This document shows, in pieces, positions 1 to 13,145 of a DNA stretch of 64,000 nt (position 1 is the stretch's first letter; every line of letters begins with the position of its first letter). This stretch comes from Curvibacter sp. Its GTDB lineage: Bacteria > Pseudomonadota > Gammaproteobacteria > Burkholderiales > Burkholderiaceae_C. The notes under the pieces are model-generated. The model saw nothing but the letters and a program-made list of their open reading frames with translations. It was not told the DNA's origin and made no database searches. Position numbers and translations under genes: made by a program. The DNA is taken from the NCBI GenBank assembly GCA_019233055.1, contig JAFAMV010000162.1, positions 3,306 through 67,305 of the forward strand. Reading direction: 5' to 3'.

Positions 1-1491
1 GCGCGAAGACACCGCGCCCGGCAGCCCGGCCAGGTGCCGCAACACGCCCGGCACCGGCACCGCCATCGCATGCCCATGTCGGGTCACCGCCAGGCGGGTC
101 GCATGGCGCATCAGGTCGGGGTGCGGGGACCGGTACGCGGTCTGGATCTGTTCCAGCCAATGGGTCCAGGGTTGCTCGAGCAGTTGCCGGCGCGCCGCGC
201 CGGTGCTGCCCAGGGCGGTGTAGAAGCTCAGCACGGTGGGCCGGGGCCGAGGGTCCAGGCGCTGATGGCCGGCATCGACATAGCCCAGGTCGGCCTGGCC
301 GTAGAGCACGTTGTCCCAGGCGGGTGCCGCGCCGGGGCGGTCCTGCAGCGGCGCGGACAGGTGCAGGTTGGCCACCACCCAGGCCGCATGCTGCCAGCGC
401 CGGGCCGTGCCCAGGACCCAGTCGGGCGGTGCAGACAGCACGCGGGCCGCCACATGCACCGGCAGCGCCAGCACGCAATGGGCCGCCAGCCAGCGCTCCA
501 CCCGCCGGGCCGTGCAATCCCAACTGTCCACCAGCACGCCATGGCGCTGCGCCTCGATCCGCAGCACCACCCGCCCGGTGAAGAGCGGTCCGCTGCGGCC
601 CTGCTGCAGGGGCTCGGCCAGACGCGCGGCCAGCCAGCCATTGCCTTCGGGCCAGGTGAGGACGCCCGGGTCGTCGGCCTCCTCGTCGCCCGGCGCATGG
701 AAGCCATGGCGGCAGGCGAAATAGTGGATGCCGGCCCAGGCCGAGACCTGGGACGAGCCGCAGCCGTAGTCGTCACGGCAGCAGTAGTCGAGGTACCAGC
801 GCAGCTGGGGGTCGCTGAGGCCTTCGCGCTGCAGCCAGTCGTCGAAGGTCAGCGCGTCGAGGGCCAGGTGCAGCGGGGCCAGCGCCTGACCGGCCATGGG
901 CACCACGAAGCGCGCCTGCCGCTGGCACTCGCCGACGCGGCGGGCAAACAGCCGGTACTGGGCCAGGGTGGCGGGCCCCACATCCTGCTGGGGCAGCAGG
1001 CTGTCCTGCCAGCGGCCCTGGAAATACAGGCGCTCCTGCGGGCTGTGGCACAGGTGCAGCTCGTCGATCACCCAGCGGCCGGCTTCGCGCCGCCGCAGCC
1101 CCAGTTCCTCGAGCAGGGCCTGCACCTGGGGCGCATCGTCCGAAGGCACCGGCAGGTAGTGGGCCCCCATGGGGCAGGGCTGGCCGTCGAGCACCGTGCC
1201 GCGGCTGTTGCCGCCGGCCTGGTCCTCGAGTTCCAGCACCGCCAGGTCGTCGACCCCGCCCTGGCGCAACGCGCGGGCGGCCGCCAGACCGGCGATGCCT
1301 GCGCCCAGCACCAGGGCCCCGACCCGGCGCGACACCGCAGGCGCCGGCCAGCGCTGCGCCGGATCGCGCAGCAGATGGCCGCGCTCGAAGGCCATGCCCT
1401 GGAAGCCGCCCGGCAGCGCCGAGGCCGCCGGAGCGCAGGAGGAGAGCCAGGGCAGGCCCGCCGCGGCGGCCAGCCAGTCGCGCCGCTTCAT
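1..1491 (-). CDS. FAD-dependent oxidoreductase (flavin amine-oxidase-like) with signal-like N-terminus; 3' end runs off the window
   Basis: Absent from the ORF track because the frame has no stop inside the window. Reverse-strand ATG at 1491-1489 reads MKRRDWLAAAAGLPWLSSCAPAASA..., then GALVLGAGIAGLAAARALRQGGVDDLAVLELEDQAGGNSR (GxGxxG dinucleotide fold plus acidic residue and GG motif). I translated both ends by eye; the interior was not checked codon by codon. Confidence 0.7.
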   Translation of the reverse strand, partial: MKRRDWLAAAAGLPWLSSCAPAASALPGGFQGMAFERGHLLRDPAQRWPAPAVSRRVGALVLGAGIAGLAAARALRQGGVDDLAVLELEDQAGGNSRGTVLDGQPCPMGAHYLPVPSDDAPQVQALLEELGLRRREAGRWVIDELHLCHSPQERLYFQGRWQDSLLPQQDVGPATLAQYRLFARRVGECQRQARFVVPMAGQALAPLHLALDALTFDDWLQREGLSDPQLRWYLDYCCRDDYGCGSSQVSAWAGIHYFACRHGFHAPGDEEADDPGVLTWPEGNGWLAARLAEPLQQGRSGPLFTGRVVLRIEAQRHGVLVDSWDCTARRVERWLAAHCVLALPVHVAARVLSAPPDWVLGTARRWQHAAWVVANLHLSAPLQDRPGAAPAWDNVLYGQADLGYVDAGHQRLDPRPRPTVLSFYTALGSTGAARRQLLEQPWTHWLEQIQTAYRSPHPDLMRHATRLAVTRHGHAMAVPVPGVLRHLAGLPGAVSSR

Positions 1492-1528
1492 GGCCGGGAT
1501 CCTGGTCCGGGAGGCCGTGTCGAGCCCA

Positions 1529-3139
1529 TCAATGCGCCACCACCTGGCCCCACTCCTGCTCGTAGGTATGGACCAGGATCTGGTTGGACAGCCGGTTGAT
1601 GCCGGTGGGCACCGGTCCCATGTCCTGCGGGAAATCGAACAACAGGGGCAGGCTGCCGAGGTTCAGGAAACGCAGGCCCTCGGGCAGGGTGGCGGGCTGA
1701 TGCCAGGGACGGCGCCCGGCGATCACATAGCCCCATTCACCGAAGCTGGGCACATGGGCGTGGTAGGCGGTGGCCTGCAGGCCGGCAGCCTCGACGGTGT
1801 GGACGACGGTCCAGAAGCTCTTGCGCGCCACCAGGGGCGAGGTGGTCTGGATCACCGCATAGCCGCTGGCCGCCAGGCGCTGGTCGAGCAGGGCGTAGAA
1901 GGACTGGGTGTAGAGCTTGCCGATGGCGAAGTTGGTGGGATCGGGAAAGTCGACCACGATCACATCGAAGCTGTCGGCCTCGCTCTGCAGCCACTGGAAG
2001 GCATCGGCATTGACGACCTTGACGCGCGGATCCAGCAGCGCGCTGTGGTTGAGCCCCAGCAGTTCGGGGCGGGTGCTGAACAGGCGGGTCATCTCGGGAT
2101 CGAGTTCGACCAGGGTGACCTGCTGCACGCTCGGGTATTTGAGGATCTCGCGCACCGCCATGCCGTCACCCCCGCCCAGCACCGCCACCCGCTGGGGGTG
2201 GCCGTGGGCGGCCATCACCGGATGCACCAGGGCTTCGTGGTAGCGGTATTCGTCGCGCTCGGCGAATTGCAGGTTGCCATTGAGAAAGAGCCGGTAGCCC
2301 TGCCGCCCGCGGGTGACCACGATGCGCTGGTAGGGCGTGCTGACGCCGAGCACCACCCGGTCCTGGTAGAACTTGTCCTCGGCCAGGCTGGTGATGCGGT
2401 CGGCCCCGATCGCCCCGGCCAGCAAGGCGATCAGCACCCCGGCACAGGCCAGGGCATGGGCACGCAGCCGGCGCAGCTCATGCCGGAACAGCCACAGGGC
2501 CCACAGCGCCACGCAGGCGTTCAGGAAACCGAACAGCAGGCCGGTGCGGATCAGCCCCAGATACGGCAGCAGCAGCAGCGGAAAGGCCAGCGACACCACC
2601 AGGGCGCCGAGGTAGTCGAAGGTCAGCACCTGAGACACCAGCTGCTTGAACTGGATCTGGCGCTTCAGGATGCGCATCACCAGCGGGATCTCCAGGCCGA
2701 CCAGGCTGCCGACGGCCAGCACCATCAGGTACAGCAGCAGCTGGAAGGCCGTGGGCAGGTAGGCGCTGGCCAGGAACAGCACCGCCGGCATGGCGCCGCC
2801 CACGCAGGCCACCAGCAGCTCGATGCGCAGGAAATGCGCCGGCAACTGGCGCTCCAGGTAGCGCGAGGCCCAGCTGCCCAGCCCCATGGCGAACAGATAG
2901 GTGCCGATGATGGTGGAGAACTGCAGCACCGAATCGCCCAGCAGGTAGGACGCCAGCGTGCCGGCCGCCAGTTCGTAGAGCAGGCCGCAGGCGGCGATCA
3001 GGAAGACGCTGGCCAGCAGGGCCAGCTCGATCGGCCGGGGGCCGGCAGCCAGGGACGCAGACGCATGCGCATGGGGCGTGCTGCGCCAGACGACATCGGA
3101 CACCTCGGTCGGGGTGGCGGGTTCAGGACGAAGGCTCAA
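1529..3139 (-). CDS. membrane-anchored polyamine aminopropyltransferase (spermidine/spermine synthase-like)
   Basis: 536-aa ORF. The N-terminal half is multi-TM (LLYELAAGTLASYLLGDSVLQFSTIIGTYLFAMGLG...). The C-terminal half carries SpeE-type motifs VLGGGDGMAVREILKY and VIVVDFPDP. Confidence 0.85.
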   Translation of the reverse strand: MSLRPEPATPTEVSDVVWRSTPHAHASASLAAGPRPIELALLASVFLIAACGLLYELAAGTLASYLLGDSVLQFSTIIGTYLFAMGLGSWASRYLERQLPAHFLRIELLVACVGGAMPAVLFLASAYLPTAFQLLLYLMVLAVGSLVGLEIPLVMRILKRQIQFKQLVSQVLTFDYLGALVVSLAFPLLLLPYLGLIRTGLLFGFLNACVALWALWLFRHELRRLRAHALACAGVLIALLAGAIGADRITSLAEDKFYQDRVVLGVSTPYQRIVVTRGRQGYRLFLNGNLQFAERDEYRYHEALVHPVMAAHGHPQRVAVLGGGDGMAVREILKYPSVQQVTLVELDPEMTRLFSTRPELLGLNHSALLDPRVKVVNADAFQWLQSEADSFDVIVVDFPDPTNFAIGKLYTQSFYALLDQRLAASGYAVIQTTSPLVARKSFWTVVHTVEAAGLQATAYHAHVPSFGEWGYVIAGRRPWHQPATLPEGLRFLNLGSLPLLFDFPQDMGPVPTGINRLSNQILVHTYEQEWGQVVAH

Positions 3140-3210
3140 GACGGATCACAAGACAAAAAAACGGACGGAGCGACCGGAGTCCACCCCGCAGACAGACCAC
3201 GGACCGGTTC

Positions 3211-3432
3211 TCAGCCGTGGATGGCTGCGGCCACGATGATGCAGATGCCCAGCGACATGGCGGCCACCACCAGGCCCAGGGCGAGGTTCTGCTTCTCGAC
3301 CAGCTCATGCCACAACTCGTAGGGCGTGAGCCGGTCGATCAGCACGAAGCAGATCCAGAAGACCCCCACGCCCACCAGGGCGAAGAGCAGGGAGGTCAGC
3401 AATGCGTCTGCGTGAAGCCATTCAGGTCCCAT
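3211..3432 (-). CDS. DUF350 (YjfL-like) small membrane protein
   Basis: 73 aa with two hydrophobic helices flanking LTPYELWHELVEKQNLALGLVVAAMSLGICIIVAAAI, the pattern typical of DUF350. Confidence 0.75.
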   Translation of the reverse strand: MGPEWLHADALLTSLLFALVGVGVFWICFVLIDRLTPYELWHELVEKQNLALGLVVAAMSLGICIIVAAAIHG

Positions 3433-3456
3433 GGGAATCTCCTTCAGAAATAGGTT

Positions 3457-4944
3457 TCATTTGTGGCCGCCCCCTGTCGAGAAGCCGCCATACGAACCGC
3501 CGGCACTGCGAAAACCCGTTGAATTGCAGTTCTCCACGGTCGGATCGCAGCTGGAACTGCGGATGAGCAGGTAGACCACCAGCACGATGAACAGGGCAAT
3601 GAGGAATTGCGTCAGGCAGCCCATGCGACGCAATGCGCCCAGGGGCGCCACATCGCCACGCTGGAACAGGCCCGGGTCGGCCTGCAGCTTGAACGCCTGC
3701 TGCACCAGCGAGGCCTCGATCTGGCTGCCCGCCGACCAGGTGACCTCGTTGAGCGCCTGCTCGCGCGACAGCAGGTAGCGCGCATTGGCGAAGTCGTCAT
3801 TGACGGTCTTCTGCCCCCGCGACACCGGCCAGTAGAACTCGCCGCAGGCATAGCTGGTCTCGGCGTTGTAGCTGTACTTGAGCGTGTAGGTGCTGCCCAG
3901 GTAGCTGGCGCTGCGCCCGCCGGACGCCAGCTTGGGCGCCCCCGTGGCGGGACGCACCAGGCTCCAGCCCTCCTCGGAGTCGACGAGGAAGCTGAAACCC
4001 CGCTGGCGGTTGAAGAGCAGGTACTCGCTCCAGCCGAACAGCTCGTCGTCCCCGGGCACCCGCCCCATGCGGTGCTGGAAACCCACCACCTGCCACTCGA
4101 CGCCCTGCAGGCTGCCCGTCGACCCCAGGGGGATGAGGGGCGCCACCGGCTCGTCCTGCAGCGCATGGCGCAATTCACCGCCCAGGCCCTGGGACACGTC
4201 GATGAGGGTGTTGCACGAACGGCAGCTCAGCGTCTTGGTGTTGGCCAGCGTGATCTCGACGGCCGCGCCGCAGTGCGGGCAGTTGAACTGCCGACCCACC
4301 TCGTCCTTGACCGATTCCTGCTTCAGACCGCTGAGCTGCAGAGACTCGAGCAGCACTTCCCGGCCCGCCGACACCGCAGGCGGCGTGCTGCTGTAGTCGA
4401 TGCTGAGCACCTCGCCGCTGTCGCTGCGCAGCTCGACCAGGCCGAAGGGAAAGCCCAGCGGCGGCAGCTTGGGCAGCTCCCCCTGGGCGGCGATCAGGCT
4501 CACCTGGTCGCTGAAGGCCACGCTGTAGGGCTGGCCATTGATGGCGGTGCCCGCCCCGACGCGGAACACCGAGGCGGCAGGGATGTCGCGGCTGACCGGG
4601 CGGGGCCGGCACAGCACATAGGCCCCGTTGTCTTCGCCGAGAAAGGCCTGGCTGCCGTCATCGAACAGCGCGATCCACTCGGTCCAGACGCCGGCCGCCG
4701 ATTTGTATTGCAGCCGCCCGATGAGGGTGAAGGCCTTGCCCTCAACCCGCCCGCTGGCCATCAGCTGCAACGGGCTGTGGTCATCGAACAGCTCGGCCAT
4801 CTTGCCGACGCGGCTCAGCACCTCGCCCTGCCGCACCACGGTGCTCTGGCAGTAGGGGCAGACCGCGTGCGTCGACTGGGCGCTGCGGAACTCAACCGGG
4901 GCACCGCAGCCCGGACAGGGGGCGCGGTAGAAGCGTTCGGTCAC
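3457..4944 (-). CDS. DUF4178-type protein with two zinc-ribbon-like CxxC pairs and a C-terminal TM helix
   Basis: 495 aa. Contains CPGCGAPVEF...CPYCQSTV and CPHCGAAVEI...CRSCNTLID, repeated beta-rich modules, the TM helix LTQFLIALFIVLVVYLLI and a Gly/Ser-rich tail. Confidence 0.7.
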   Translation of the reverse strand: MTERFYRAPCPGCGAPVEFRSAQSTHAVCPYCQSTVVRQGEVLSRVGKMAELFDDHSPLQLMASGRVEGKAFTLIGRLQYKSAAGVWTEWIALFDDGSQAFLGEDNGAYVLCRPRPVSRDIPAASVFRVGAGTAINGQPYSVAFSDQVSLIAAQGELPKLPPLGFPFGLVELRSDSGEVLSIDYSSTPPAVSAGREVLLESLQLSGLKQESVKDEVGRQFNCPHCGAAVEITLANTKTLSCRSCNTLIDVSQGLGGELRHALQDEPVAPLIPLGSTGSLQGVEWQVVGFQHRMGRVPGDDELFGWSEYLLFNRQRGFSFLVDSEEGWSLVRPATGAPKLASGGRSASYLGSTYTLKYSYNAETSYACGEFYWPVSRGQKTVNDDFANARYLLSREQALNEVTWSAGSQIEASLVQQAFKLQADPGLFQRGDVAPLGALRRMGCLTQFLIALFIVLVVYLLIRSSSCDPTVENCNSTGFRSAGGSYGGFSTGGGHK

Positions 4945-4968
4945 GTGGGATCAGGCGAGGCCGTCGGC

Positions 4969-5994
4969 TCAGACCAGCTTCTTCAGCAACTCGGTCTTCT
5001 TGGCATCGAACTCTTCGGCGGTCAGGATGCCCTTGGTCTTGAGGTCGGCCAGCTTCTCGAGGGTGGCCATCACCTCCTCGGGCTTCACGCCCGCCGGTGC
5101 CGCAGGCGCTGCCGCGCCCGCCAGGCCGGCCGACAGGTTCTGCGCCAGCACCTGGCCCAGGGCCACACCGGCGCCCAGCCCCATGGCGTCGCCCGCCACA
5201 CCGCCGCCCTGCCCCACCCCCTCGGCCAGCTTGGGGATGGCCTGGGCGGTCTGGTACTGCATGAACTGGCCCATGTTCTGGCCCACCATGCCGATGCCGA
5301 TCTTCTGGTCGAGCACCTTCTGCAGATCCTCGGGCAGCGAGATGTTCTGCACCGTCAAGGCCTCGAGCTGCAGCCCGAGGCGGGCGAATTCGGGGGCCAG
5401 CTGGGCGCTCAAGGCCTCGGCCAGACCCTGCTGGCGGGCCGCCAGGTCGAGGAAAGGCACGCCGCTGGCGGCAATCGCATTGCTGATGTTCTGCAGCACC
5501 AGACCGCGCAACTGGCCTTCCAGGTCACCCACCGCATAACGTTCGCGGGTGCCCGAGATCTCGGTGTGGAAGCGCCGGGCGTCGGCCACGCGGAAGGCAT
5601 AGTTGCCGAAGGCCCGCAGGCGGATGGCGCCGAAATCCTGGTCGCGGATGGTCACCGGCTGGGGGGTGCCCCAGCGTTGGTCGACCTGCTGGCGCGTGCT
5701 GAAGAAATAGACATCGCTCTTGAACGGCGACTGGAACAGCTTGTCCCAGTTCTTCAGATTGGTCAGCAGCGGCAGGGTCTGGGTGCTGAGCTTGTGGGTG
5801 CCGGGGCCGAACACGTCGGCCACCTGGCCCTCGTTGACGAAGATCGCCACCTGCGACTCGCGCACGATCAGCACGCCGCCGTTCTGGATCTCCATGTCGG
5901 CCATGGGAAAGCGCCAGGCCAGGGTGCCATCGCCGTCCTCGGTCCACTGAATGACGTCAATGAACTGCTTCTTGATGAAATCCATCAGTCCCAT
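4969..5994 (-). CDS. SPFH/Band-7 family protein (YdjI-like, 'virion core protein' type) with C-terminal SHOCT-like domain
   Basis: 341 aa. The N-terminus MGLMDFIKKQFIDVIQWTEDGDG...LIVRESQVAIFVNEGQ is typical of YdjI-type SPFH proteins. The C-terminus KLADLKTKGILTAEEFDAKKTELLKKL is SHOCT-like. Confidence 0.8.
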   Translation of the reverse strand: MGLMDFIKKQFIDVIQWTEDGDGTLAWRFPMADMEIQNGGVLIVRESQVAIFVNEGQVADVFGPGTHKLSTQTLPLLTNLKNWDKLFQSPFKSDVYFFSTRQQVDQRWGTPQPVTIRDQDFGAIRLRAFGNYAFRVADARRFHTEISGTRERYAVGDLEGQLRGLVLQNISNAIAASGVPFLDLAARQQGLAEALSAQLAPEFARLGLQLEALTVQNISLPEDLQKVLDQKIGIGMVGQNMGQFMQYQTAQAIPKLAEGVGQGGGVAGDAMGLGAGVALGQVLAQNLSAGLAGAAAPAAPAGVKPEEVMATLEKLADLKTKGILTAEEFDAKKTELLKKLV

Positions 5995-6117
5995 GGCTTC
6001 CTCCTGCTCGGTGTCGGATGGATCGGGATGATACCTGGGGCCCGGGGCGCCGGCCCGGCTTTGCGCCCCAGGCGTGGGCGCGCCGCCACAGCGGCGACAG
6101 CGGCAGCAGTCCGGCGC

Positions 6118-6417
6118 TCAGGCCTGGACGCTGAGCAGGCTGCCCATCATCTGGTCCTGCGTCTGGATGGTCTGGAGGTTGGCCTTGTAGCTGTAGCTGG
6201 CCGACATCTGATTGACCAGGTCCTGCGCCAGATTGCTGCCGGCCACCGGATCGCTCGTGATGCTGGCACTCGTGCCGCCGTTCGGATCGGCCTGCTGGTT
6301 CACCACCTCGCGGTGGTAGCCGTCGGTATTGAGATTCGCGATGTTGTTGGCGGCCGCGTTGAGCTGCAGCTGGGAAGCCTGCAGGCCCGATAGGCCGATG
6401 GCACTGATGCTGGACAT
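6118..6417 (-). CDS. minimal flagellar basal-body-rod-family protein (N- and C-terminal rod motifs only)
   Basis: 99 aa. AANNIANLNTDGY fits the rod-protein N-terminal signature (N-N-[LIVM]-[SA]-N-x-x-[TSV]-x-G-[FY]). The C-terminus DLVNQMSASYSYKANLQTIQTQDQMMGSLLSV resembles the rod C-terminal helix (EMVN.I.AQRAY.AN.K.I.T.D.M...LL). No other flagellar genes lie nearby. Confidence 0.65.
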   Translation of the reverse strand: MSSISAIGLSGLQASQLQLNAAANNIANLNTDGYHREVVNQQADPNGGTSASITSDPVAGSNLAQDLVNQMSASYSYKANLQTIQTQDQMMGSLLSVQA

Positions 6418-6474
6418 GGCAACGCCCCGGTACGAAGGAAGTCCCTCGATTATCGTCGCATGCCTTCTCTTTGC

Positions 6475-6499
6475 AAAACGGCGGCCGTCAAGTCCGCCG
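6475..6499 (-). terminator. possible rho-independent terminator after the OmpA-like gene
   Basis: On the minus strand, CGGCGG-9 nt-CCGCCG is followed by TTTTGCAAAG. The stem is short (6 bp, all GC). Confidence 0.35.
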
Positions 6500-6518: not shown

Positions 6519-7001
6519 TCATCTGATCTGGACCGTGACCGCGTGCCGGGCTTCCGTGGTCACATATTTGACGCGGATGTTCTTGGCCGCCACACCCAGA
6601 CGCAGCAACTCGCTGCGCACCGCCAGCGCACGCGCCAGGGCCACCTGCCGTGCGTTCTTGGGCGCATCCTGTCGGTTGCAGTAGCCGACGACCTCCAGAT
6701 GCGGCGCCTGCACCAGCGTCGGCGCCACCTCGGCCAGCAAGGCCAGGGTGTCGTCCGACAGCCGGGTGTTCTGGGGTTCGAACTCGGCCACGGTCCCGTC
6801 CTCCGGCAGGTGCCGGGGTGCGGGTGCGGCAGGGGCCGCCGGCGCCGGCGCCGCGGCGGGCGCGGCCGCTGCGGACTGACCGGCAGAGCCAGCCCCGGCC
6901 TCCGGCGCACCGGCCTGGGTGGAATCGGGCGGATTGGCAGCGCAGCCGACCAGGGACGCCGCCAGCAGGACCGTACTCAATGCAACACACTTCAAGGACA
7001 T
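6519..7001 (-). CDS. OmpA/MotB-like peptidoglycan-binding lipoprotein
   Basis: 160 aa. It has a signal peptide with the lipobox LVGC, an Ala/Pro-rich linker and a C-terminal OmpA-like segment (VVGYCNRQDAPKNARQVALARALAVRSELLRLGV). Confidence 0.75.
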   Translation of the reverse strand: MSLKCVALSTVLLAASLVGCAANPPDSTQAGAPEAGAGSAGQSAAAAPAAAPAPAAPAAPAPRHLPEDGTVAEFEPQNTRLSDDTLALLAEVAPTLVQAPHLEVVGYCNRQDAPKNARQVALARALAVRSELLRLGVAAKNIRVKYVTTEARHAVTVQIR

Positions 7002-11138: not shown

Positions 11139-11360
11139 CATCGGGGTGTCATTTCTTTGGCTTCACATCGCCCCTCACAGGCCAACGCTGCTCATCTCCG
11201 TTTCTACAGGGATGTGAAAACAACTAACGGCAGGGTTGACGGGGATTGCCTGTAGGGCACGGTGCATGCAACATGCACCGCAGCAAGGGCTTGGCGCCGG
11301 ATCCATCCGATCCTGGCGTGACTCTTGCCTGTACTCGCAGCACCTCCTGGAGGCAACAAA

Positions 11361-13145
11361 ATGAACTTCCTGAACCGCCTTTCGATTCGCGCCCGTTTGT
11401 ATTTTGGAACGGGCTTCTCCCTGGTCCTGCTGACCGTCATCGGCCTGACCGGCTTCTGGGCCCTCAACAGCACCCAGGCCACGCTCAAGACCCTGCTCGA
11501 ACAGAAGGTCCAGGTGCTGACCTCGCTGGACGCGCTGCGCCTGCAGGCGGCCGATGTGCGCCGCAGCGAAAAAGACATCATCATCAATTTCAACAATTCG
11601 GTCGAGGTCGGCAACCTGCGCGAAGCCTGGAAGAAGCAGCTGGGCAGCCTGGGCGCCGCCACCACGGCATTGGCACAGCAGAACAGCGCAGACGCGGCAT
11701 TGGCCGAACCGCTGAAGCAGGTCTCGGCAGCACTGAAGGAATACGAAACCGGGCTGACACCGATTCTTGAACAGGTCGAACGCGCACAGATCGACGGTGC
11801 GGCCGCCGGTGCCTACGCCGACCGCCTGAAGAAGCACATGGAGACCGCCGACCAGGGCCTGTCGACCCTGTCCACGCAGGCCACCGAGGCCATGCAGGCG
11901 GCCCAGGCACAGATGCAGAGCGACATCAACCGCCAGATCGGCCTGATGGTGGGCCTGCTGGTGATCGCGCTCGTGGTGCTCATCCCCCTGACCGTGCTCA
12001 GTGTGCGCGGGCTGGCCCATGCCATCACCCAGGCTCGGGATCTGGCCGAACGCATCGCCCAGGGCGATCTCTCCAACGAGGTGTCGAGCGACGCCACCGA
12101 TGAACTGGGACAACTGGTGAGCGCCATGGGCAGCATGCAGCAATCGCTGCGCGATCTGGTGCGCCAGGTGTTGCAGGCCACCGAAAGCATCGCCACAGCC
12201 AGCACCGAGATCGCCAGCGGCAACAACGACCTGTCGCAACGCACCGAACAGACAGCCGCCAACCTGCAGAAGACCTCCTCGTCGATGGAAGACCTGACGC
12301 TCAATGTGCAGCAGTCGGCGGAATCGTCGCGGCAGGCCAGCTCCCTGGCCAGCTCGGCCTCATCCGTGGCCCAGGAAGGCGGCCAGGTGGTGTCCAAGGT
12401 GGTCTCGACCATGGAAGAGATCCGCAGCGCCTCGCGCAAGATCGGCGACATCACCGGGGTCATCGACGGCATCGCCTTCCAGACCAACATCCTGGCCCTC
12501 AACGCTGCCGTCGAGGCCGCACGCGCCGGCGAGCAGGGACGAGGCTTCGCGGTGGTGGCCGGCGAGGTGCGCTCGCTCGCCCAGCGCGCAGCCCAGGCGG
12601 CACGCGAGATCAAGTCGCTGATCGGTGCGTCCGAGGCCAAGGTCGAATCCGGCGCCGAACTGGTTCAGCAGGCCGGCACCACGATGAGCGATGTGGTGGT
12701 GTCCGTCCAGCGCGTGGCGCAGATCGTCGCCGACATCACCCATGCGGCCAGCGACCAGAGCACCGGCATCGGTGACGTGAACCAGGCGATCGCCCAGCTC
12801 GACCAGGTGACACAGCAGAATGCCGCCCTGGTCGAGGAGTCGGCCGCCGCAGCGCAATCGCTGCAGGGCCAGGCCGAACAGCTCGAGCACCTGGTGCGCC
12901 GCTTCCGACTGGACCAGGGTGGGGCGGCAACGGCCCGACCGGCCCCGGCACGCCCCGCCATGACCACCACGCCTGCGCCGATGGCACGCCCGCTGCCCGC
13001 CGCAGCGCGGTCCAAGCCGCTGGCCAAGGCCGCCAGCACACCGACACTGCCACTGAAGAAGGTTGCCAACGCAGCCTCCAACCCGGCGCCGGCAGCCACG
13101 CCGCCGGCAGCCGCCAACAACAACGACGACTGGGAAACCTTCTGA
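11361..13145 (+). CDS. methyl-accepting chemotaxis protein (4HB/HAMP type) with C-terminal DWETF pentapeptide
   Basis: Conserved signalling hairpin [39 protein letters not shown]. The protein ends ...NNNDDWETF, resembling the NWETF CheR/CheB-tethering motif. Start at the ATG at 11361. Confidence 0.92.

Follow-up and report, generated by a model that had tools for sequence, protein, structure and literature searches.

A PspA-free gene cluster of Curvibacter pairs a membrane-anchored SpeE-like aminopropyltransferase with a predicted Tat-exported amine oxidase

What does a SpeE-like aminopropyltransferase modify when it is anchored in the membrane and paired with an amine oxidase, and on which side of the membrane does it act? 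A gene cluster of Curvibacter sp. raises this question. It occupies the left 6 kb of a 64,000-nucleotide stretch of contig JAFAMV010000162.1 (positions 3,306 to 67,305; hereafter the window) and consists of five co-directional open reading frames (ORFs), all on the minus strand, whose GC3 (G+C at third codon positions) of 0.88-0.91 reflects the codon bias of real genes. In gene order they encode an SPFH protein with a SHOCT domain, a DUF4178 zinc-ribbon membrane protein, a DUF350 mini membrane protein, a SpeE-type enzyme fused to a seven-transmembrane (7-TM) domain, and a flavin amine-oxidase-like protein (Table 1); their closest protein matches come from Curvibacter, Acidovorax and other Comamonadaceae. 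An earlier note, made from the sequence alone, had named these five genes and their domains, and all were found again with the same Pfam and NCBIfam assignments. Our preferred reading of their function, to which we give a probability of about 0.5, is that they specify an inner-membrane machine that is independent of PspA and organised by the SPFH protein, and that it aminopropylates, on the envelope side, an acceptor other than free putrescine and removes the added groups oxidatively. The question has a wider setting. Thousands of bacterial genomes, that of the plant pathogen Ralstonia solanacearum included, pair membrane-bound SpeE-like enzymes with an S-adenosylmethionine (AdoMet) decarboxylase (AdoMetDC, SpeD), as does Mycobacterium tuberculosis at Rv2597-Rv2601, and what these enzymes aminopropylate has been a standing question since 2019.

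The SpeE fusion scored 683 bits against the NCBIfam model NF002956 ‘polyamine aminopropyltransferase’ (cutoff 472) and 120 bits (E 9.3e-35) against Pfam Spermine_synth. It fits the 7-TM PRK03612 model (683 bits) and matches the MFS-fusion model NF037959 only weakly (53.5 bits). Both the GGGDG motif for decarboxylated AdoMet (dcAdoMet) and the D-x-x-D motif (DFPDP), which serves catalysis and amine anchoring, are invariant in 48 SpeE sequences. The structure nearest to the catalytic domain is Thermus thermophilus SpeE (1uir), a triamine/agmatine aminopropyltransferase (Foldseek E 8e-16); the fold search with the fusion returned soluble SpeE structures only, and its 7-TM domain found no match. 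In the AlphaFold2 model, with a predicted local distance difference test score (pLDDT) of 74.5 overall and about 75-90 in the membrane part, long helices span residues 24-55, 58-80, 87-115, 117-147, 152-182, 184-205 and 213-232 and are followed by a linker helix and the SpeE fold. Mean Lys plus Arg counts in more than 50 homologues are 3.3 for the N-terminus and 3.0, 4.0 and 3.05 for loops 2, 4 and 6, against 0, 0 and 0.03 for loops 1, 3 and 5. Because the positive-inside rule applied to these loop charges agrees with a seven-helix model in placing the N-terminus inside and the C-terminus outside, we infer that the catalytic domain lies outside the cytoplasm, on the periplasmic side. Four acidic residues, E44, E95, E138 and D163, are invariant and all lie inside the transmembrane helices, where they would suit the passage of a cation, which might be dcAdoMet or a polyamine or amine acceptor. 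The fusion thus shares the fold and the dcAdoMet and catalytic motifs with the canonical cytosolic SpeD/SpeE system, but differs from canonical SpeE in its N-terminal 7-TM domain, in its predicted extracytoplasmic orientation and in its obligate linkage to DUF350 and DUF4178.

The partner enzyme is predicted to reach the same compartment. It matched Pfam Amino_oxidase (E 3.5e-19; 69.9 bits, gathering score 19.8) and NAD_binding_8. The former family, PF01593, also covers desaturases and protoporphyrinogen oxidase, and no specific NCBIfam model was reached; when the protein was aligned with putrescine and polyamine oxidases, the N-terminal flavin adenine dinucleotide (FAD) motif alone aligned (E 5e-08 to 1e-04). 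The earlier note had called the oxidase signal-bearing, which was right and can be made more specific: its N-terminus, MKRRDWLAAAAGLPWLSSC, combines a twin-arginine motif with a lipobox (KRRDWL…LSSC). Of 55 orthologues, 51 carry an RRxFL motif, and nearly all have a hydrophobic stretch followed by Cys; the Ralstonia orthologue, at 40 % identity, has a twin-arginine translocation (Tat) motif as well. From the RRxFL motif, the hydrophobic stretch and the lipobox Cys, the oxidase is predicted to be a Tat-exported lipoprotein, and export by this route is what would be expected because the protein folds around FAD before export. The predicted locations of the SpeE catalytic domain and the oxidase, both periplasmic, speak against a placement of these enzymes in the cytoplasm. 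The left edge of the window cuts the oxidase gene, as had been recognised. A contig in the European Nucleotide Archive (L088), which matches the window at 99.98 % identity across 5427 bp and reaches 3.3 kb further left, supplies the full-length oxidase (548 aa) and, 5 bp after it, a gene for a 174-aa GNAT acetyltransferase (L088 5589..6113). After GNAT, a 170-bp gap precedes TauD-family and BKACE genes.

At the front of the cluster, the SPFH protein matched Pfam Band_7_1 with 254 bits (E 9.9e-76; gathering score 24) and SHOCT with E 2.8e-07. It has no transmembrane segment; the highest Kyte-Doolittle value of any 19-mer is 1.36, in a Gly/Ala-rich stretch ahead of SHOCT. A Band_7_1 domain, the lack of a membrane segment and a zinc-ribbon membrane partner encoded 24 bp downstream place it with the YdjI/SamI-type proteins. 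A search of PDB sequences with it gave zero matches. The partner (Pfam DUF4178, E 9.6e-25) contains two zinc ribbons of the form CxxC…CxxC with a DUF4178 beta domain behind each of them, and the eight ribbon cysteines (10, 13, 29, 32, 222, 225, 241 and 244) are invariant in 39 homologues with identities down to 29 %. Its AlphaFold2 model is all-beta (pLDDT 75) and matched no PDB fold at E<0.005 (best E 5.7e-3, TM-score <0.25); a profile search of PDB sequences returned generic zinc ribbons only. The DUF4178 family is large, with 2816 clusters at 50 % identity (E<=1e-3) and matches in at least 587 species genomes. It includes a second class of about 630-680 aa (representatives P0156-P0270; loci L084, L091, L093 and L096), in which a conserved FExRRWxESDH motif and an acidic tail (…DDDD) come after the transmembrane segment; this class is accompanied by a separate mini-ORF with a C-terminal Lys, usually His-Lys. 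The third protein matched Pfam DUF350 (E 8.3e-14) and has two transmembrane segments, and Escherichia coli YjfL matches the DUF350 genes of the related loci.

The C-terminal transmembrane anchor that the earlier note had assigned to the DUF4178 protein is present as a single segment at residues 443-461, but it does not end the protein: a strongly conserved 34-aa tail ending in His-Lys follows, RSSSCDPTVENCNSTGFRSAGGSYGGFSTGGGHK. The C-terminal HK was found in 83/83 Comamonadaceae loci, most of them with a CDPxxxxC pair in the tail, and an HK-type end also in about a third of 150 DUF4178 cluster representatives. Where DUF4178 lacks the tail, the tail module is a separate mini-ORF of 48-64 aa directly downstream, which in many cases overlaps the stop codon of DUF4178 and the start codon of SpeD. 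These mini-ORFs end in …GGFSGGHK in Ralstonia (a 61-aa ORF), …WSSGGHK in L085, …SRRSRHK in L084, …GHVYHK in L096, …GGGGSHK in L097, …GGSSWHK in L099, …GPSHK in Novosphingobium, …SYGSHK in Burkholderia, …RFRHGK in Gemmatirosa and …NSNRVK in Tritonibacter; in L087 the tail is fused to DUF4178 and ends in …GGFGGK. A C-terminal Lys on a Gly/Ser-rich tail, usually as His-Lys, was found in every lineage with a contig that reaches that far. The mini-proteins have a Lys/Arg-bearing N-terminus and one hydrophobic helix, for which reason the tail is predicted to be extracytoplasmic, and some have a plausible signal-peptidase site. When the tail module was searched against Pfam and NCBIfam, DUF1190 included, there were zero matches.

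The arrangement is conserved. In a survey of 80 Comamonadaceae species loci, in which all cluster genes were mapped by tblastn, the order SPFH–DUF4178–DUF350 was near-invariant: SPFH lies directly ahead of DUF4178 in 67/69 species and DUF350 directly after it in 76/78. The SpeE fusion starts within 500 bp of DUF350 in 51/72 species and 0.5-8.4 kb further on, on the same strand, in 17/72, and the oxidase adjoins SpeE in 37/59 and is further away in 15/59. With adjacency at these frequencies, the arrangement is not due to chance. In Acidovorax-like genomes the DUF350-SpeE junction contains inserts of 3-8 kb, some of lower GC, with a conserved protein of about 920 aa among their contents. This insertion hot spot was seen in L006 (11764..18205), L012 (11714..19151), L014, L021, L064 and L066. 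The inserts were considered as missing components of the system and rejected; their contents are heterogeneous (the ~920-aa helicase/restriction-like protein, GGDEF proteins and response regulators, lipoproteins) and unrelated.

A genome scan with a narrower DUF4178 alignment gave Comamonadaceae only; wider lineages came from a plasmid collection and metagenome contigs. The Ralstonia solanacearum megaplasmid has DUF350–SPFH/SHOCT–DUF4178–61-aa ORF–SpeD, with the SpeE fusion and oxidase 11 kb away on the opposite strand, and both modules occur as in Ralstonia, in a divergent arrangement, in Burkholderia stagnalis and L097. The order is SPFH–DUF4178–mini-ORF–DUF350–SpeE–oxidase–SpeD in Novosphingobium (Alphaproteobacteria) and SPFH–SpeD–DUF4178–mini-ORF–DUF350–SpeE–oxidase in Gemmatirosa (Gemmatimonadota). 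Among metagenomic contigs, L096 has SPFH–DUF4178–mini-ORF–SpeE–oxidase, with a YfaP_C-domain gene (11310..12095) directly 3' of the oxidase, and L084 has SPFH–DUF4178–mini-ORF–DUF350–SpeE. L087 and Tritonibacter have neither SPFH nor oxidase. Judged from these gene orders, DUF4178, DUF350 and the membrane-anchored SpeE are the universal core, SPFH/SHOCT is a frequent but replaceable front end, and SpeE and the oxidase are a tight pair. A SpeD gene (Pfam AdoMet_dc, E 3e-24; ESH processing motif) stands beside the cluster in 12/80 Comamonadaceae loci and is adjacent in most of the distant lineages (Ralstonia, Burkholderia, Novosphingobium, Gemmatirosa, L085, L097 and L098).

None of these loci brought a PspA gene with it. 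At E<=0.01 the window and about 95 related loci (1.68 Mb) yielded no homologue of PspA/YjfJ, YjfI, YjfK, YjfM or YjfC, which bears out the absence of PspA stated in the earlier note; a tblastn query with E. coli PspA gave no match at E<=1 in the same DNA, and no DUF2170 homologue was found there either.

A hexamer resembling TAT(C/G)AT was located in 60 of 70 related loci no more than ~90 nt ahead of the SPFH start, and at 26-46 nt in 54 of them. No conserved -35 element was found in the 70 loci; no conserved sigma-54 or extracytoplasmic function (ECF)-type element was seen ahead of SPFH, and the cluster has no linked regulator gene. The TATCAT hexamer of the window (Table 1) is likely the -10 box of the operon promoter, and SPFH through GNAT would form one transcription unit. 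The DUF350 and SpeE genes overlap in several genera. A candidate terminator between them was rejected (fold z-score -0.13, on a par with shuffled sequence; T-run after DUF350 in only 5/81 loci). In the Curvibacter group (L001/L003/L004/L005 equivalents) a T-rich element, GTTTTGA[AT]GACTGTGGATTGTTTTGAGCC, is semi-conserved in the DUF350-SpeE spacer, and positions 3140..3210 (minus strand) of the window carry a diverged version of it with T7 and no convincing terminator.

Taken together in a working model, the cluster would be transcribed as one operon from a sigma-70-type promoter just upstream of SPFH. On the cytoplasmic face, the soluble SPFH/SHOCT protein would dock on the double zinc-ribbon DUF4178 protein, by analogy with the recruitment of YdjI by YdjG and YdjH. 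The membrane layer would hold the DUF4178 anchor, DUF350 and the 7-TM domain of SpeE, whose in-helix acidic residues may pass dcAdoMet or the amine acceptor, and the outer face would present the aminopropyltransferase domain, the flavin amine oxidase and the His-Lys tail. There, SpeE would add aminopropyl groups from dcAdoMet and the oxidase would remove them oxidatively. The dcAdoMet would be supplied by a SpeD encoded elsewhere in the genome, which in relatives is adjacent to the cluster, and the SPFH/DUF4178/DUF350 part may organise or gate the aminopropyl activity.

Similar neighbourhoods had been noted computationally, as the earlier note supposed. Ravi et al. (mSystems 2024; PMC11237479) described a CesT/Tir–PspA operon with a 7-TM spermine/spermidine-synthase fusion, DUF350, a lipoprotein and DUF4178, and Band-7/SHOCT variants of DUF350/polyamine operons with polyamine oxidase and AdoMetDC. 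The cluster shares with their PspA-free variants DUF4178, DUF350, the 7-TM SpeE, a Band-7 plus SHOCT protein in place of CesT/Tir-PspA, and, as counterpart of their polyamine oxidase, a protein of the FAD amine-oxidase family; AdoMetDC is shared by relatives of the cluster but is absent from the window and L088. Further differences are the GNAT gene appended here, the lack of a Ctha_1186-type lipoprotein, and the ‘2TM’ described in their Band-7 protein, of which none is clear in the SPFH protein. Because Ravi et al. (2024) and Li et al. (2019) described such neighbourhoods, the cluster is a further member of a kind known from comparative genomics; it offers a compact PspA-free example, in which SPFH is one of several interchangeable front ends. 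New here, as predictions, are the outward-facing SpeE catalytic domain, the oxidase as Tat-exported lipoprotein and the membrane-anchored tail with its C-terminal Lys. Ravi et al. (2024) predict an intracellular DUF4178 and mention no His-Lys tail or mini-ORF, Tat signal on the oxidase or outward catalytic domain. Mentions of ‘DUF350’ in two Pseudomonas papers were set aside, being in fact DUF3509.

The kinship to the Bacillus subtilis pspA-ydjGHI and E. coli yjfIJKLMC operons (YjfL being DUF350) also holds. In B. subtilis, YdjG, a membrane protein with zinc ribbons, and YdjH recruit YdjI, an SPFH protein of the cytosol; part of the phenotype does not need PspA. Like the cluster, the pspA-ydjGHI (samGHI) operon sets a cytosolic Band_7_1 SPFH protein beside a membrane protein that combines a globular domain and a transmembrane segment with two zinc ribbons. 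In contrast, the cluster has neither PspA nor the TPM-domain protein YdjH, its globular domain is DUF4178 and not NTF2/YpeB-like, polyamine enzymes are attached, the host is diderm, and the likely promoter is of sigma-70 type where that of B. subtilis is sigma-W regulated. With the E. coli operon it shares DUF350 beside an enzyme of polyamine chemistry. YjfM (DUF1190; L095, NC_000913.3 4412387..4413025) has a Lys/Arg-rich N-terminus, one transmembrane segment, several Cys and a Gly/Ser/Tyr-rich tail ending in …ARGHWGG, which resembles the His-Lys tail in composition; this is a likeness only, and no sequence homology between the two was detectable. Directly after YjfM comes YjfC, annotated ‘peptide--spermidine ligase’, an activity that Pederick et al. 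(2023), as cited by others, are credited with having observed in vitro. In either system the end group suits the enzyme encoded nearby: a Gly carboxylate goes with a spermidine-adding amide ligase in E. coli, and a Lys amine with an aminopropyltransferase plus AdoMetDC in the SpeE-type systems. The E. coli compartments may not agree, in that YjfC needs ATP and the YjfM tail is predicted to be periplasmic. The yjf operon further has the PspA-family YjfJ, DUF2170 and DUF2491; its enzyme is an ATP-grasp ligase and no aminopropyltransferase, and it is without SPFH, DUF4178 and oxidase.

Which acceptor the enzyme uses is the point at which the interpretations part. Membrane fusions of this type, the subject of work by Li, Kurihara, Kim, Liang and Michael in the Biochemical Journal of 2019, reportedly make no spermidine and do not complement speE; the membrane aminopropyltransferase is said to cluster with DUF350 and to depend on a class 1b AdoMetDC, its acceptor having been proposed to be other than putrescine. 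That work is said to have centred on MFS-type fusions, whereas the SpeE here fits the 7-TM model. Ravi et al. (2024) cite it for the AdoMetDC linkage and for ‘aminopropylation of other substrates’. Spermidine made from putrescine is accordingly a doubtful product of the SpeE fusion, as the literature points to another acceptor, and with it the local polyamine synthesis of the earlier note, taken as a spermidine synthase making a free product, becomes doubtful.

That note had in mind a membrane-repair or scaffold device joined to local synthesis or oxidation of a polyamine. Spelled out, a device of PspA type would go with synthesis and oxidation of free spermidine or spermine on the cytoplasmic face, and the polyamine itself would stabilise damaged membrane. 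The idea draws on the SPFH and zinc-ribbon partners that accompany PspA in B. subtilis, on DUF350 in the PspA-family yjf operon, on the presence of every canonical SpeE catalytic motif, the diamine-anchoring Asp too, on the NCBIfam name of the enzyme, and on the proposal of Ravi et al. (2024) that polyamine levels are linked with membrane dynamics. It is opposed by the charge bias and seven transmembrane helices, which put the catalytic domain outside, by the predicted Tat export of the oxidase, by the lack of a PspA gene in the 1.68 Mb of related loci, by the absence of spermidine that Li et al. (2019) reportedly noted for such fusions and by the lack of a conserved stress-type promoter. We consider it unlikely. 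Its envelope-stress component is an analogy only: what is conserved is a sigma-70-like -10 box, with no promoter of sigma-54 or ECF type.

The tight pairing of SpeE with the oxidase could also mean that the two, with GNAT, are a unit for polyamine salvage or interconversion that works like the eukaryotic aminopropyltransferase/SSAT/PAO cycle, remodels or detoxifies exogenous polyamines at the envelope and has the SPFH module merely upstream. The SpeE-oxidase gaps of 0-20 bp in many genomes agree with this, as do the persistence of the pair when it is split from the SPFH module (Ralstonia, Burkholderia, L097), the near-contiguity of GNAT with the oxidase (the short gap on L088, an overlap in L001) and the insertion hot spot at the DUF350-SpeE junction. 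Yet both modules lie within ~11 kb in every lineage examined, covering three phyla or classes, and are joined into one array of co-directional genes in Gemmatirosa, Novosphingobium and L096; GNAT follows the oxidase in only 3-4 of 47 loci, all in the Curvibacter group. Moreover, in Ralstonia and L097 SpeD is translationally coupled to the DUF4178 and His-Lys-tail genes, not to SpeE, and therefore the SPFH module itself is tied to aminopropyl chemistry. Separate salvage seems to us decidedly unlikely.

Within the preferred reading of envelope-side aminopropylation, one candidate acceptor is the Lys that invariably ends the His-Lys tail. The system would then be one that aminopropylates a peptide or protein at its C-terminal lysine. 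Facing outward, the SpeE domain would extend the epsilon-amine of the tail Lys into a polyamine-like chain on the outer side of the inner membrane, and this chain would be trimmed or taken off by the Tat-exported oxidase. We offer this as a tentative idea that is more probably wrong than right. If it holds, the products of DUF350 systems in general would be polyamines tethered to the membrane or borne on peptides, which would account for the ‘polyamine-independent role’ of AdoMetDC; protein aminopropylation would be a new post-translational modification, and DUF350, DUF4178 and SPFH proteins of this type would gain a function. A search of the literature on protein aminopropylation and on Rv2599/Rv2600 found nothing useful. 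The cluster by itself would not surprise a specialist; the predicted outward topology and the widespread His-Lys tail make the acceptor question accessible to mass spectrometry. That the tail instead ties the inner membrane to peptidoglycan through its terminal Lys, cross-linked as in Braun's lipoprotein, with the polyamine enzymes modifying wall or tether, would suit an invariant C-terminal Lys on a flexible, predicted periplasmic tail, a CDPxxxxC pair suggestive of a periplasmic disulfide, and the covalent polyamine-peptidoglycan links that citing literature mentions for other bacteria, but is very improbable given that no L,D-transpeptidase gene is linked to the cluster, that the tail is only ~30 residues long and that in many lineages the module looks like a cleavable signal peptide plus a short peptide, which would leave no membrane tether.

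Several points weigh against an envelope-side, SPFH-organised machine. The orientation of SpeE rests on the positive-inside rule and on an AlphaFold2 model read without coordinate inspection; should helix 7 fail to cross the membrane, the catalytic domain would end up in the cytoplasm. We know of no precedent for a periplasmic dcAdoMet-dependent enzyme, which would require export of dcAdoMet. The Asp of DFPDP that anchors the distal amine is kept and would fit a diamine or polyamine-like acceptor as well as any. GNAT is expected to act in the cytoplasm because it has no signal peptide and needs acetyl-CoA. SpeD found no match in the 64-kb window or on L088. The five genes, earlier treated as a single unit, do keep their adjacency, but they are really two sub-modules, SPFH/DUF4178/DUF350 and SpeE/oxidase, which are split in 17 Comamonadaceae species and in Ralstonia. 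The sequence gives no sign of stress induction of the cluster, and a further paper of 2024 states that operons of this kind lack experimental data.

The features of the cluster are collected in Table 1. From SPFH to oxidase, the intergenic gaps are 24, 24, 71-107 and 37 bp; the range in the third reflects the SpeE start, for which gene callers picked GTG and for which a TTG at 3139 is an alternative.

Table 1. Positions in the window of the cluster genes and associated elements.
Feature	Position	Strand	Remarks
SPFH protein: Band_7_1, Gly/Ala-rich weakly hydrophobic segment, C-terminal SHOCT	4969..5994	-	341 aa; predicted cytoplasmic
DUF4178 membrane protein: 2x (zinc ribbon + DUF4178 beta domain), transmembrane segment, tail	3457..4944	-	495 aa
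Tail after the DUF4178 transmembrane segment: RSSSCDPTVENC…GGSYGGFSTGGGHK-COOH, C-terminal His-Lys	3460..3561	-	predicted extracytoplasmic
DUF350 (YjfL-family) mini membrane protein, two transmembrane segments	3211..3432	-	73 aa
7-TM + dcAdoMet-type aminopropyltransferase fusion (SpeE)	1529..3103	-	524 aa from GTG start
Predicted Tat-exported lipoprotein, FAD amine-oxidase family	1..1491	-	497 of 548 aa inside the window
Sigma-70-like -10 hexamer TATCAT	6028..6033	-	33 nt upstream of SPFH ATG
Weak hairpin followed by T7, DUF350-SpeE spacer	3165..3189	-	found by terminator consensus scan

Upstream of SPFH lies a gene for a 99-aa mini-rod protein (6118..6417, minus strand) with only Flg_bb_rod (36 bits) and Flg_bbr_C (30 bits) motifs. 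There are no flagellar genes in its vicinity, and it has a sigma-70-like site of its own at 6477..6449. A mini-rod gene stands upstream of SPFH in 17/68 Comamonadaceae species; this limited distribution, its own promoter-like site and the conserved -10 box that SPFH has for itself led us to reject it as a component of the operon. Just upstream of it is a gene for a 160-aa OmpA-family lipoprotein (6519..7001, minus strand) with the lipobox LVGC and an Ala/Pro-rich linker. This lipoprotein gave zero tblastn matches at E<=1e-5 across the related loci and appears to be specific to this organism. Beyond it lies a divergent malic enzyme gene.

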